Source: Candidatus Nezhaarchaeales archaeon (GTDB lineage Archaea > Thermoproteota > Methanomethylicia > Nezhaarchaeales > WYZ-LMO8). From it: 64,000 nucleotides of DNA. Position 1 is the stretch's first letter; each line of letters begins with the position of its first letter. The stretch spans positions 67,518 to 131,517 of the forward strand of contig JAWAKK010000001.1 of NCBI GenBank assembly GCA_038887515.1. Reading direction: 5' to 3'. A model generated the notes under the pieces. The model saw only the letters and a list, made by a program, of their open reading frames with translations, did not search any database and was not told where the DNA came from. The position numbers and the translations under genes were made by a program. Positions 45,127 through 49,583 of the stretch are shown piece by piece.

Positions 45127-45444
45127 ATGTTGTCGACCATAATAATATCGCCTGAATTCGATATAATACTCGATCCTGAAAATATGGTGATAGGTGAAGC
45201 TAGAAGCGACTTAGCTTTACTAGACGTTACGCCCATAGACAAGAAGATTGGCGAGCTCAATGACATAATAGATGTACTGTTCTGGTCTTTCGATCCAAAA
45301 GTATCGACTTCAACGACGCCTAGATCCGGGAAAAGGGGGTTGCCGTTAAAGGTTTACTACTTGCCAGACATGATACTAGGCTTCCTCGTAGGCTTAGCGC
45401 TGTTCAGCCTAATAATAGCGATGCACTTTACATTAACTCTATGA
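45127..45444 (+). CDS. MtrB-like tail-anchored protein, tentatively assigned.
   Basis: 105-aa product with a single C-terminal transmembrane helix. The N-terminal segment IISPEFDIILDPENMVIGEA and the segment WSFDPK...PRSGKRG resemble the MtrB pattern (APE..L.LDP..G, SLDP, PGREG). I am recalling that pattern from memory. The gene lies directly upstream of the MtrA homolog. Confidence 0.4.
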   Translation: MLSTIIISPEFDIILDPENMVIGEARSDLALLDVTPIDKKIGELNDIIDVLFWSFDPKVSTSTTPRSGKRGLPLKVYYLPDMILGFLVGLALFSLIIAMHFTLTL

Positions 45445-45477
45445 ATGCTAACGCAAAAATATTAAAGAGTGAGGTAA

Positions 45478-46251
45478 ATGTTCGTGAGAACCCTTCAAAA
45501 AATGAAAGTTGAGCTGGCACCAAATTGGCCCGTAGCGGTTGGAGACTACGTAGTTGGAGATCCTAAAGGTTGTGTTGCGATATGTACGTTGGGGTCTGAA
45601 GGGATATGCTCATTCCTAGTAAAAATGCCGGGAGTCGCAATAGTTGGACCTTGTAAAACTGAGAACGTAGGTTTAGAGAAAATAATATTAAACGTAATAT
45701 CAAATCCAAACATTAGGTTTTTAATAGTATGCGGAATCGAAGTTACAGGCCACTTACCAGGTCTCTCCTTTAAAGCTCTTTACGAAAACGGCATAGAGCC
45801 GGCAACTAAGAGAATCAAGGAAGCACCTGGAGCAATACCTTATATAGAACACTTGACCGTTGAAGCTGTGGAACGTTTTCAAAAACAGGTACAATTTATA
45901 GACATGATAGGGGTTGAAGACATAAACATAATTAAAGCTAAAGTCGAAGAACTCGTAACACAAGATCCAGGAGCTTACCCTGAGCCTCCATTTATCGTAG
46001 ATATCGAGAAAAAAGAGACGAGAGAAACCACTATACCTAAGTTAATTTTGGTTCCATCAATCACACCATCACTGTCAACCCTATCGGCATTAATGAGTGA
46101 CGTAAAGCGTAGAGTGCAATTAATAGAAAGAGAAAGGAAAATTATAACTGCTGTAGAAGTTACAAGAGCTTGGAGTATAGTAGCGGGGATATTACTTGCC
46201 TTCTTGCTCTTTGGTCTACTAGCACTTGTAGTGATTTTAGGAGGAACATAA
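45478..46251 (+). CDS. mtrA: Homolog of tetrahydromethanopterin S-methyltransferase subunit A (MtrA), the corrinoid-binding subunit, with a C-terminal membrane anchor.
   Basis: The product has the segments WPVAVGDYVVGD, KTENVGLEKIILNVISNPNIRFLIVCGIEVTGH, APGAIPYIEH and ERFQKQVQ. A C-terminal transmembrane helix is present. The sequence is collinear with MtrA, with high similarity. Confidence 0.85.
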   Translation: MFVRTLQKMKVELAPNWPVAVGDYVVGDPKGCVAICTLGSEGICSFLVKMPGVAIVGPCKTENVGLEKIILNVISNPNIRFLIVCGIEVTGHLPGLSFKALYENGIEPATKRIKEAPGAIPYIEHLTVEAVERFQKQVQFIDMIGVEDINIIKAKVEELVTQDPGAYPEPPFIVDIEKKETRETTIPKLILVPSITPSLSTLSALMSDVKRRVQLIERERKIITAVEVTRAWSIVAGILLAFLLFGLLALVVILGGT

Positions 46252-46252
46252 A

Positions 46253-46740: not shown

Positions 46741-48246
46741 TCATTCCTCGCATTCGTTTCTTGTCGAACTTTCATTACTACGCTTAACTTTACGCTCCAG
46801 TTTTTGAAACTTTGCCCTTAAGCTCAATATACAGCCCATCCCCCTATTACCTCCTAGAGGATTCTGCGGCGTCCCCAAGGAATGTAAACACCTAGCCATT
46901 ACATTAGCCCCCAAGGCTAAGCCGTCTTCAACGAACACGACTCTTCTATTGACGTCGTCGTTAAATACGCCAAGCTCGTCAACATACTTAAGTATTAAGT
47001 AAGGCTTTAGACCTGTTATTCCTGCCCTTCCAGTTATACCTATGGTGTAATTATCATTTATTAAACCGTGCGCTATTAAGGTCTCCAGGACTCTTTTAGC
47101 TATAAGAGCTGAAGTATAATCCAGTATCGCTAAGAGCGTCTTGCCTCCATATTGACTGTAGAACTCGTGACCTAGTGACCGCAATTTAGGTAAGTAACTT
47201 CCATTATCCCCTACATCGCATCCTATCAGTAATACTCCTTGCTCGCACGCTAACTTTGCATTAATGGGTATCATGCCCACGCGTACTGCACTTGGAAGGA
47301 CTTTCCTTACGTCTATGTACTTATGCACTTCATAAGCTAATTCCTCGCACTTCTCAGCATCTATGACGTCTTTGGTCTTAATGTACTCTGAAAACTCTAA
47401 AGCTGACGTCGCGACTTCGGTACCTTGAATTAAAGCATCACAAATAGCTCCAGAGAGACCACATATACTGCCTATAGTCTTGGCGTAAGGAAGTTCATCA
47501 TTTGTAACCCTTCCTTTAAAGGTAGTCCCAAAATCCATGGATATTATAGGGTTTCTACAATCTACATCAGTCCACTTAGCTCCAACCTTTATACCGGCAG
47601 TCGAAAGCTCAGCTTCCATCTCATTTGCCATTATCTCACCTCCACTCTTGGGAGGTAGGCAGCCAGCAATCGCTCCATCAAAAAAGACTACATCAAGTTT
47701 TGAATATTCTTTTAAATCATCTGGAAGAGAGTTCTTAGATAAAGGTGCTATCATTTTTGACGGACTTATACCAGCTGCCAGACAACCCTTGGCTAATGCC
47801 CTTATAACCGAGCCGACTTCTTCTGGTGTTCCAAAGCTAGCGCTAATACCTGTTGATTGCACTACAAAATGTAAATCTTTATCCCTATCTAGTCCAGCTT
47901 CCCTAACGCAAGATACGAGGAAATCCCTGATAAACTCGATTACTGCCATTTCGCTTAGCATCTTCCCCCACAAGGTATAGCCTAGTAAGCGCTCGTTGGG
48001 GTGGGGTCTTCTGATGTTTCGTGTTAGTTCGACTGCCCTCCTTACTAGGTAAATTTTTCCAGTTTTTAAATCAGTAGTAGTTATGATGCACTTAGTAGTG
48101 GTGTTGCCAAGCTCAATTGATGCGACAGTGAAGAGTTGCCCAGTCCCTCTAGTTGTTACTTTCACAGGATCAATGAACATGCCGCGCGCAATTCTAGGGT
48201 TATACTTGCCGATTTTACCCTTTCTCTTTAAAAATTTAAGCCTCAT
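46741..48246 (-). CDS. ASKHA-superfamily (actin/Hsp70/sugar-kinase fold) protein. Its function is unknown and it is co-transcribed with mtrH.
   Basis: There are two phosphate-1-like motifs (ASIELGNTTTKCII and ISMDFGTTFKGRV) plus DVGDNGS. Confidence 0.5.
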   Translation of the reverse strand: MRLKFLKRKGKIGKYNPRIARGMFIDPVKVTTRGTGQLFTVASIELGNTTTKCIITTTDLKTGKIYLVRRAVELTRNIRRPHPNERLLGYTLWGKMLSEMAVIEFIRDFLVSCVREAGLDRDKDLHFVVQSTGISASFGTPEEVGSVIRALAKGCLAAGISPSKMIAPLSKNSLPDDLKEYSKLDVVFFDGAIAGCLPPKSGGEIMANEMEAELSTAGIKVGAKWTDVDCRNPIISMDFGTTFKGRVTNDELPYAKTIGSICGLSGAICDALIQGTEVATSALEFSEYIKTKDVIDAEKCEELAYEVHKYIDVRKVLPSAVRVGMIPINAKLACEQGVLLIGCDVGDNGSYLPKLRSLGHEFYSQYGGKTLLAILDYTSALIAKRVLETLIAHGLINDNYTIGITGRAGITGLKPYLILKYVDELGVFNDDVNRRVVFVEDGLALGANVMARCLHSLGTPQNPLGGNRGMGCILSLRAKFQKLERKVKRSNESSTRNECEE

Positions 48247-48250
48247 AGTT

Positions 48251-49198
48251 TTAGCCTACAAGTCTTCGATATGGATGATCTTCACTTATGGGGAGTCCAA
48301 GCTCAAGGTGGGTTGTATCCGTCACAATAGCGTCAGCCATGGCTACTACTGGAAAAACGAATTCTGCATTCTCTATGGGTCCATAGAGTACGAAGTTGCC
48401 ACCGATAATTACTTGAAGGATGTTGCTAGCTATATCGCAGAATCTAAATATCTCTCTACCTCGGGGATGCTCTTTCTTAATTCTCTTAAGCCACGGCCAG
48501 GCCGATATAACGTTATGTAAACTGCTCCCTGTCGGGTAACCGAACTTTGACTTAATGACATACGTTGATGCTAGGGCAGCTCCTGCACCAGCTCCTAAAG
48601 TAGTTACTGCGACATCGATCAATGTAGCCTTGACTCCACACTCATTGGCAATATTAAGTAACCCATTTTTAACAACGCCTCCTCCGCTCGTTAGTATTGT
48701 AACCTTACCCCTTATCGAGGGGTCGGCCGGATTAAACGCCAAAATAACGCTATTAGGCATTTTTAGTTCTCTTAGAACATTAAACTCTTCTTCAGTTATT
48801 GAAACGTTTATTGAGTTATATACGGCTTTATCGATAAGCCCAACCTCTTTGGCATATTTTGCGCCTTCAATCCTAACTCTAGGTTCTGTAGAATCTATTA
48901 GAAATGGAGATGGGGTGACTGATGCTACAAAATCTATGTACTTCTTCATTGCCTCGACGCTTTCGGAGAATATTTGGACCATGCAAGGGTTACCGGTTAT
49001 ATCGGACATTTCCTCTTGCTTCTTTATTAACGCCTCGGCTTTGTCTTTATCAAAAAGGCCTTTCCTATGGTCACTTACTATTTTATGTCCTCCATAAAAT
49101 ATTGTTCCAGCTAAGACCGTAGGGTTTTCGCCTGGTTGTCCTCCTATCTTAACTTTCCCTACTTGGTAAACGTACTGCTCTCTAGCGAATAGATATAT
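48251..49198 (-). CDS. mtrH: Homolog of tetrahydromethanopterin S-methyltransferase subunit H (MtrH), a pterin-binding TIM barrel.
   Basis: The conserved MtrH N-terminal region (GKVKIGGQPGENPTVLAGTIFYGGHKIVSDHRKGLFDKDKAEALIKKQEEMSDITGNPC) is encoded in frame upstream of the first ATG at 49009. The rest of the protein (NVISAWPWL and so on) is collinear with MtrH. No ATG, GTG or TTG start exists in the open frame between 49009 and the upstream stop at 49226-49228. The position equivalent to the Met is an ATA codon at 49196-49198. Confidence 0.75.
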   Translation of the reverse strand: MYLFAREQYVYQVGKVKIGGQPGENPTVLAGTIFYGGHKIVSDHRKGLFDKDKAEALIKKQEEMSDITGNPCMVQIFSESVEAMKKYIDFVASVTPSPFLIDSTEPRVRIEGAKYAKEVGLIDKAVYNSINVSITEEEFNVLRELKMPNSVILAFNPADPSIRGKVTILTSGGGVVKNGLLNIANECGVKATLIDVAVTTLGAGAGAALASTYVIKSKFGYPTGSSLHNVISAWPWLKRIKKEHPRGREIFRFCDIASNILQVIIGGNFVLYGPIENAEFVFPVVAMADAIVTDTTHLELGLPISEDHPYRRLVG

Positions 49199-49583
49199 TG
49201 CAATTACACCTCCAACTAGACAACTTCACTTTTAAGATCCAAGTAACTCTTTAAGCTTTACGTGACTTAACAGTAAAGAATGATTAGAATAATTGAAAAT
49301 TAATTTAGAACACTAAGAAGCCACCTTTATCATAGGGGTCCTTCCAGTTAAGAGATTGTAAGGTTGGGAGATGTTATATTTAAATTCGAAGTTACACTTC
49401 TAACAGATTCAGGTTAAGCGACGTTCCCGTCTAAATCTTGCCGAAGTCATGTAATCAAGGCAACTTTATGGCTTAAACCAAGGAGCATTGCCTGTCCCTA
49501 AATCGCTCTCGCCTTACGTTTATGGTTCCCCCGACAGTCTTATATACCTCTAACGTAAAAAGAATTGAGGGTTTTTACTAAAT

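Follow-up and report, generated by a model that had tools for sequence, protein, structure and literature searches.

A Nezhaarchaeal Mtr Locus without MtrCDE: Selection on the Remaining Genes and a Possible Role in Methyl Transfer

Introduction

The membrane complex MtrABCDEFGH transfers methyl groups from methyl-tetrahydromethanopterin (methyl-H4MPT) to coenzyme M (CoM). This reaction is the sole energy-conserving step of CO2-reducing methanogenesis. Here we describe a locus in a hot-spring archaeon of the Candidatus Nezhaarchaeales that codes for the subunits MtrB, MtrA, MtrF, MtrG and MtrH together with methanogenesis marker 14, and that lacks mtrC, mtrD and mtrE. The analyzed stretch of DNA, referred to as the window, comprises 64,000 nt of assembly GCA_038887515.1 (contig JAWAKK010000001.1, positions 67,518 to 131,517 of the forward strand). 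A first-pass annotation made from the letters of this DNA alone had drawn attention to the locus.

According to the structure of the complex from M. marburgensis, Mtr(ABFG)3 forms a central stalk and trimerization core to which the MtrCDE globes attach mainly via MtrE, and the sites for CoM and Na+ sit inside MtrCDE (PMC10998594). Since both sites lie within the missing part, Na+ translocation coupled to CoM methylation is expected to be absent from the organism described here.

Results

We identified the genes by profile searches against Pfam and NCBIfam with curated cut-offs. The call for mtrF is marginal, and the other five lie well above their thresholds. On the plus strand, mtrB (45127-45444; PF05440, 44 bits against a cut-off of 27; match to PDB 8q3v_B with E=1.3e-7) is followed by mtrA (45478-46251; PF04208, 222 bits), which codes for the corrinoid-binding domain and a C-terminal membrane helix that also matches the MtrF model. 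The next two genes code for single-pass stalk subunits, namely mtrF (46253-46456; PF09472, 23.7 bits against a cut-off of 22) and mtrG (46472-46699; PF04210, 52 bits; TIGR01149, 52 bits against a cut-off of 50.65). The assignment of mtrF is backed by position and synteny, with 65% identity to MtrF at the same position in the related locus L002.

The minus strand carries the gene for the ASKHA-fold protein methanogenesis marker 14 (DUF2114, "m26"; 46741-48246; PF09887, 580 bits; TIGR03285, 567 bits) and mtrH (48251-49198; PF02007, 310 bits; TIGR01114, 322 bits against a cut-off of 271), which codes for the TIM-barrel methyl-H4MPT-binding subunit of 315 amino acids. Because marker 14 begins 4 nt past the stop codon of mtrH, the two genes are probably co-transcribed. 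This putative operon is preceded by a ribosome-binding site (GGAGGTG) and a promoter-like leader (49199-49258, minus strand), of which about 58 of 60 nt are the same in L084, the locus of a closer relative that was assembled from a different sample (run SRR32459161; MtrA 82% identical to that of the window).

These searches bear out the first-pass annotation with respect to the mtrA and mtrH homologues, to the three small genes resembling mtrB, mtrF and mtrG (all above their gathering scores) and to the plus-strand order B-A-F-G, which is also syntenic with full operons. The MtrA sequence is 100% identical to MEM4575945.1 and marker 14 is identical to MEM4575948.1, both from a Candidatus Nezhaarchaeales metagenome-assembled genome (MAG), and the same locus has been assembled independently from run SRR21619495.

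The absence of mtrCDE, also pointed out in the first-pass annotation, could be confirmed. A tblastn search of the 64-kb window with MtrE, MtrD and MtrC from a related genome returned no match, and syntenic relatives carry mtrEDC exactly at this place. The window and related Nezhaarchaeota genomes share a collinear stretch of about 20 kb. In L002, L003 (GCA_025059375.1) and L005 (WYZ-LMO8), the gene for a metallo-β-lactamase (MBL)-fold hydrolase is followed by mtrEDCBAFG, by marker 14 and mtrH on the opposite strand, and by carA and carB; mtrE begins about 115 nt downstream of the hydrolase gene. The same hydrolase gene is followed at the same place by mtrBAFG in the window, in L001 and in the species representatives L006 (DAIQQE01), L007 (JAAOZJ01, SJ3.Bin21), L008 (CAZLVJ01) and L009 (CAZPGS01). 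As the left synteny anchor, the hydrolase gene of the window (44329-44985, plus strand; Pfam Lactamase_B_3, 165 bits) encodes a protein with 70-81% identity to its homologues in L002 and L005-L009, the genes for which lie directly upstream of mtrE or mtrB. The right anchor is carA (49584-50711, plus strand), with 78% identity to carA at the same position in L002. The intergenic region between the hydrolase gene and mtrB (44986-45126, plus strand) measures 141 nt and occupies the position of mtrEDC, which spans about 2.6 kb in the relatives. L084 contains the same gene set; its contig begins 120 nt upstream of mtrB, so that the hydrolase junction is not visible. The window (with SRR21619495), L084 and L006-L009 thus count as six independent assemblies without mtrCDE (CDE-less loci).

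A complete complex, with mtrCDE encoded elsewhere in the genome or missed by the assembly, has to be considered since our reading covered 64 kb of the genome and MAGs are incomplete. This explanation is contradicted by the recurrence of the same junction in independent assemblies (the window with Logan SRR21619495, Logan SRR32459161 on the mtrB side, and four GTDB species representatives) and by a published genome survey in which MtrCDE is likewise missing (PMC12700198). Among 80 mtrA loci from species-representative genomes, mtrEDC lies upstream of mtrB wherever the sequence suffices, except in this clade. With a Nezhaarchaeota (Nezha) MtrE as query against 5.8 billion proteins, we found 12 Nezha-type clusters that are 81-97% identical to the L005 protein, and the next match was 62% identical. 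The same collection holds about 19 Nezha-type clusters of MtrA and 20 of marker 14, with identities down to about 60%, and no MtrE of the divergence expected for the CDE-less lineages. Nor did we find a Nezha-type MtrE on the 776,437-nt contig that bears MEM4575945.1 and MEM4575948.1. The loop of MtrB that contacts MtrE has also decayed, as described below. We regard a complex completed from elsewhere as extremely unlikely. Based on synteny, the 80-locus comparison and the protein search, mtrCDE has been lost rather than relocated. An assembly artefact is ruled out by the agreement of six assemblies from different samples and by the decayed MtrB loop.

The orientation of mtrH is a separate matter. 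In Bathyarchaeota, Hecatellales and Methanomethylicia, mtrEDCBAFGH lies on one strand, and marker 14 comes next in all sequences long enough to show it. Marker 14 adjoins mtrH in the Nezha, Bathyarchaeota, Hecatellales and Methanomethylicia loci that extend past mtrH (L002-L015); L016 gave no match. The ASKHA gene that the first-pass annotation had placed beside mtrH on the opposite strand is marker 14, and since the same opposite-strand pair occurs in Nezha relatives with full operons, this Nezha-wide arrangement is older than the deletion. A side observation concerns the space between mtrG and marker 14, where some relatives contain a gene for a 335-amino-acid protein with weak TiaS-like similarity (L002, 11380-12387; L004, 2533-3525). 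This insert is absent from the window and the other CDE-less loci.

The CDE-less loci form one clade with 78% bootstrap support in a neighbor-joining tree of concatenated MtrA, MtrH, marker 14, MtrG and MtrF. We also aligned the intergenic regions between the hydrolase gene and mtrB to see whether the window and L084 share their junction with L006-L009, and these sequences are too diverged to decide. A single ancestral loss of mtrEDC is likely but not proven, as judged from the tree and from a substitution in MtrA that all six loci share (see below). The intergenic sequence AGAAGAAGTGCGAGTTGATGCATG just before mtrB resembles the end of mtrC in L002, CTAAGAAGTGAGGTGATGCATT. The match is short, and the 141-nt region may, tentatively, hold a remnant of the last mtrC codons.

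The start of mtrH required correction. The gene had been extended to position 49228 in the first-pass annotation; however, 49226-49228 is a TGA stop codon, and the gene spans 48251-49198. Residues 1-315 of MtrH align over their full length with relatives (tblastn). The start codon at 49196-49198 (minus strand) is ATA, compared to ATG in L002 and L005 or GTG in L006 and L008, and the frame contains no ATG, GTG or TTG ahead of residue 64. The ribosome-binding site lies 8 nt upstream of ATA. Both ATA (about 4197-4199, minus strand) and ribosome-binding site recur in L084, a second genome from another sample. Between ATA and the first ATG lie 63 codons with a ratio of nonsynonymous to synonymous substitution rates (dN/dS) of 0.09. 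Because these codons are constrained and both ATA and the ribosome-binding site are kept in L084, translation of mtrH very probably begins at ATA. Genuine non-canonical initiation is a more convincing account of this codon than truncation or a sequencing error. As a consequence, gene callers give MtrH as 252 or 243 amino acids. By the same evidence, we can exclude the possibility that mtrH is a 5'-truncated pseudogene.

The open reading frames (ORFs) of the remaining genes are intact in the six CDE-less loci, except for a short stretch of marker 14 in L009, while the identity of MtrA among these loci falls to 58%. The dN/dS values, calculated by the Nei-Gojobori method for pairs of loci that both lack CDE, are 0.12-0.18 for MtrA, 0.08-0.23 for MtrF, 0.08-0.32 for MtrG, 0.08-0.12 for marker 14, 0.09-0.13 for MtrH and 0.18-0.49 for MtrB. 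For comparison, the flanking genes give 0.06-0.08 (CarA) and 0.07-0.15 (MBL hydrolase). The retained mtr genes are therefore under purifying selection. A promoter-like block of about 60 nt upstream of mtrB is about 85-90% identical between the window and L084, and the regions upstream of both mtrB and mtrH are kept in this pair despite synonymous divergence (dS) of 0.35-1.1 in the flanking genes.

Relative-rate tests of the CDE-less lineages, with Bathyarchaeota, Hecatellales and Methanomethylicia as outgroups, revealed that MtrB evolves 2.3-3.6 times faster in these lineages (p = 0.002-0.04). MtrA is about 1.7 times faster, which is borderline, and MtrF and MtrG are about 2 times faster, which is not significant given how short these proteins are. 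MtrH and marker 14 show no significant change of rate. With dN normalized to that of CarA, each retained Mtr gene is roughly 1.3-3 times faster than between two CDE-containing genomes. Constraint on the module is thus relaxed and is far from lost.

This relaxation raises the question as to whether the locus is a decaying remnant, in which the leftover mtr genes became useless after the loss of methyl-coenzyme M reductase (MCR) and MtrCDE and are turning into pseudogenes. The acceleration relative to CarA across the module, the faster evolution of MtrB, the missing ATG start of mtrH, the frameshifted marker 14 of L009 and the complete loss of Mtr in some related families (PMC12700198) are all consistent with decay. 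Useless genes would hardly remain intact in six loci as diverged as these, with dN/dS of 0.08-0.49 between pairs that had both already lost CDE. Decay also fits poorly with the conserved promoter regions, with the catalytic residues and the MtrH-docking arm described next, or with an ATA codon, ribosome-binding site and 63 constrained codons that are kept in a second genome. We therefore consider decay to be quite improbable.

The residues expected to mediate methyl transfer are present. MtrA H92 aligns with the cobalt ligand His84 of M. marburgensis (8q3v_A) and is invariant in 22 homologues. In MtrH, the residues D102, N128, D195 and N229 are conserved in an alignment to M. mazei MtrH (9qtp) and are proposed to bind the pterin; the protein also matches MtgA (E=6e-41).

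Cryo-electron microscopy of the M. mazei complex has shown that the MtrB loop Pro56-Thr70 touches MtrE directly and that the MtrH dimer docks on MtrB residues 1-23 (PMC12774963). The N-terminal arm of MtrB (residues 1-36) is 49% identical to outgroups in the CDE-less loci, compared to 48% in CDE-containing lineages. Loop 59-76, on the other hand, retains 13% identity to outgroups in the CDE-less loci, compared to 57% in CDE-containing lineages, and the two CDE-less sub-clades are 15% identical to each other in this region. A PLISSRPRREGLY-type motif in this loop is common across phyla in CDE-containing lineages. These alignments indicate that the loss of constraint in MtrB is specific to the loop contacting MtrE, and that the MtrH-docking arm is kept.

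MtrA carries a smaller signature. Residue 94, two positions past the cobalt-ligand histidine, is proline in all six CDE-less loci, and the corresponding threonine (Thr86 in M. marburgensis) is invariant in the CDE-containing sequences examined. This change could be a marker of common descent, or it could reflect adaptation of a His-on/His-off switch to life without MtrCDE. At the published interface with MtrCDE the signal is weak: only D17 (four of the six loci) and the neighboring T86P stand out.

A different explanation for the locus is that the cell needs only MtrH, perhaps along with marker 14 and MtrA's soluble domain, as a methyl-H4MPT:corrinoid methyltransferase for another system, and that MtrB, MtrF and MtrG persist as a mere scaffold or in some other non-catalytic role at the membrane. 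Such a role would account for the fact that MtrH and marker 14 are not significantly accelerated while MtrB, MtrF, MtrG and partly MtrA are, and it has precedents in the MtrAH-only remnants of Thorarchaeia and Jinzhaarchaeceae (PMC9635834, PMC12700198). It is less easily reconciled with the intact membrane helices of MtrF and MtrG at dN/dS of 0.08-0.32, or with the full conservation of the MtrB arm on which MtrH docks. The latter observation suggests that keeping MtrH and MtrA together is still a function of the stalk, and we find a need for MtrH alone rather unlikely.

In marker 14, the ASKHA nucleotide-binding motifs ELGNTTTK, DFGTT and GITGRAG are invariant in 46 homologues, as are the cysteines C453 and C472, with C155 and C343 nearly so. 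Adam et al. linked this family (DUF2114, their "m26") to Mtr on the grounds of its distribution and its synteny, also in Thorarchaeia that have only MtrAH (PMC9635834 supplement). Our literature search for the function of DUF2114/Mmp14 gave only this association with Mtr. A sequence search against the PDB gave no meaningful match. Fold searches returned generic ASKHA relatives, with RACo (4c1n, 3zyy) among them at a TM-score of about 0.3, and no specific likeness to RACo, HgdC or diol-dehydratase reactivase. The RACo type combines an ASKHA ATPase with an N-terminal [2Fe-2S] ferredoxin domain, and no Pfam match to a ferredoxin domain was found in marker 14. Since marker 14 persisted without a change of rate when CDE was lost, its role is expected on the side of MtrA and MtrH. 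With its intact nucleotide-binding motifs, marker 14 is probably an ATP-dependent helper of this half of the complex, and it may, as a reasonable guess, be an ATP-dependent activator or reactivator of the corrinoid.

Beyond the mtr genes, the window also carries two AORs, LysX (two copies), LysZ, LysY, LysJ, LysK, ArgG, ArgH and CarAB. No mcr or H4MPT C1 gene was detected among the scanned ORFs of the window, some of which (at about 54-64 kb) were only inspected by eye; this far right end includes a probable pyruvate-oxidoreductase cluster. The inventory given in the first-pass annotation, with a LysW pathway, AORs and no mcr or H4MPT C1 genes, stands for the scanned ORFs. Its description of the context as not methanogen-like applies to this sub-clade only, as known from the literature (PMC12700198), and does not hold for the Nezhaarchaeales (Methanonezhaarchaeia), which are a methanogen lineage; relatives with full Mtr share the gene neighborhood of the window. 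The LysW-type lysine/arginine cluster (28124-34701, minus strand) includes two LysX paralogues (28124-28984 and 33856-34701), which would fit a bifunctional pathway. Both give sub-threshold matches to MptN, the H4MPT:glutamate ligase (178 and 167 bits against a cut-off of 350).

The supposed Mer-like gene at 39708-40577 has to be reassigned. Its best family is DUF7388, its scores against the Mer models are far too low (TIGR03555, 21.7 against 276 bits; NF002619, 19.4 against 349 bits), and the match covers only the C-terminal 80 residues. The gene forms a pair with DUF2153 (39283-40577; DUF2153 on the plus and DUF7388 on the minus strand), which occurs at the same place in L002 and L003. Since these relatives have full Mtr, the pair is not tied to the loss of MtrCDE. 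Elsewhere in the window (16273-19284, plus strand), we noticed a gene for a 1003-amino-acid protein with a HerA/DUF87 ATPase domain near its N-terminus and dense CxxC repeats resembling many tandem zinc ribbons in the C-terminal 230 or so amino acids; no Pfam family matched the remainder.

Discussion

We consider it fairly likely that this locus encodes an Mtr remnant that is kept by selection, in which the ABFG stalk and MtrH would carry out methyl exchange without CoM methylation or Na+ pumping. The first-pass annotation had proposed a truncated membrane-anchored corrinoid methyltransferase without MtrCDE, and the clean syntenic loss, the agreement of six assemblies, the lack of a matching MtrE, the purifying selection and the intact catalytic residues all speak for this proposal. 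Such a module would presumably function without sodium pumping.

The proposed course of events starts from an ancestor with mtrEDCBAFG on one strand and marker 14 and mtrH on the other. The genes mtrE, mtrD and mtrC, and with them the sodium channel and the site of CoM methylation, would have been deleted, most likely once. The module that remains is predicted to consist of marker 14 and a self-assembling Mtr(ABFG) membrane stalk, with an MtrH dimer attached to the MtrB N-terminal arm. Without CDE, the stalk would form and anchor both MtrA and the MtrH dimer. MtrH would catalyze the reversible reaction of methyl-H4MPT with cob(I)amide-MtrA to H4MPT and methyl-cob(III)amide-MtrA. The second half-reaction, in which the methyl group passes to CoM with coupled export of Na+, should no longer be possible, and a separate methyltransferase would therefore have to load or unload MtrA. 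An O-demethylase of the Mto type is a candidate. Welte et al. reported mtoABC homologues in SJ3.Bin21, the CDE-less genome of L007, and in WYZ-LMO8 (PMC8359953), which makes methoxylated aromatics one candidate source of methyl groups. In this mechanism we infer that the stalk assembles without CDE, which way methyl groups flow, what the partner enzyme is and what marker 14 does.

A more specific version of this proposal is tentative and has less than even chances. The module could act in a non-methanogen of the Nezhaarchaeales as a free-standing, membrane-tethered methyl-H4MPT:corrinoid methyltransferase that, together with soluble substrate methyltransferases such as an O-demethylase, supplies the Wood-Ljungdahl pathway. 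Marker 14 could serve the Mtr corrinoid either as its ATP-dependent reductive activase or by loading the cofactor. The role assigned to marker 14 is suggested by the behavior of this protein upon loss of the pump module: it remains associated with MtrA and MtrH, and its rate of evolution does not change.

Several observations weigh against a remnant kept by selection for methyl exchange, or against parts of its reconstruction. Since all retained genes are accelerated relative to CarA, constraint has weakened across the module and not only in MtrB. Marker 14 in L009 (about 6900-7200, minus strand) contains a stretch of about 40 codons that is readable only via two compensating frameshifts, which reflect either a co-assembly error or incipient decay in this lineage. 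Expression of mtrH could be low in the window and L084, given its ATA start. The tree from which we deduce a single loss was built on accelerated genes, those of Mtr itself, and is only moderately supported. Marker 14 has a generic ASKHA fold without specific likeness to RACo. With respect to the partner enzyme, the reported MtoA homologue may be MtrH itself, and no partner methyltransferase is encoded among the scanned ORFs of the window, including those at about 54-64 kb inspected by eye.

A pump-less Mtr under selection implies that the two half-reactions of the complex are separable in evolution. It would also offer a simpler natural system in which to examine the MtrH-MtrA half-reaction and the assembly of the stalk, and it limits where in the complex marker 14 would function, to the corrinoid/MtrH side. 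CDE-less Mtr would record an intermediate step in the archaeal exit from methanogenesis.

The CDE-less pattern has already been published, with a similar reading, for the same family. The report "Cultivation of Methanonezhaarchaeia..." (Sci Adv 2025;11:eaea0936, PMC12700198) lists nine species clusters of Methanonezhaarchaeceae, of which five have full MTR, one has none and three are without MtrCDE; the MtrCDE-lacking species are stated to have lost MCR. The system described there (f__WYZ-LMO8) and the one in the window belong to the same lineage and have the same subunits present (A, B, F, G and H) and absent (C, D and E), and the locus of the window is syntenic with that of WYZ-LMO8 and groups with the other CDE-less loci in the tree. 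The published account is a statement of presence and absence for three species clusters. Our analysis adds the exact syntenic deletion, a larger CDE-less set of six loci, the dN/dS values, and the decay of the MtrB loop relative to the conserved docking arm as mapped on structures. Further additions are the shared MtrA substitution, the ATA start of mtrH, and the retention of marker 14 with its tentative assignment to the MtrA/MtrH half. Relative to the published pattern, this work is thus of value for its evidence of selection and for relating the sequence changes to solved structures.

Compared to canonical MtrABCDEFGH (PDB 8Q3V, 9QTP/9QTS), the subunits A, B, F, G and H are orthologous and share the histidine ligand, the pterin residues, the stalk helices and the MtrB-MtrH docking arm. 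Unlike the canonical complex, the set in the window has no MtrC, MtrD or MtrE, and hence would have no CoM-binding cavity, Na+ site or second half-reaction. The MtrAH-only remnants of Thorarchaeia and Jinzhaarchaeceae (PMC9635834, PMC12700198) are likewise from non-methanogens and keep the methyltransferase half together with DUF2114 (m26); their proposed role is to deliver methyl groups into the Wood-Ljungdahl pathway. In contrast to these remnants, the window also keeps MtrB, MtrF and MtrG, which are under purifying selection. Complete Mtr without Mcr, as found in Bathyarchaeia (o__B25) and Hecatellales, is another remnant of methanogenesis in the TACK group (Thermoproteota) with marker 14 beside mtrH; there, mtrEDC is kept and all genes lie on one strand. 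Finally, MtoABCD, MtgA/MtgC and MtaABC share the proposed principle of a corrinoid protein that carries methyl groups back and forth, with a substrate-specific methyltransferase at one end and a pterin enzyme of the MtrH/MtgA family at the other. These systems differ in that they are soluble, use a corrinoid protein of the B12-binding-domain family instead of MtrA, and have no membrane stalk.

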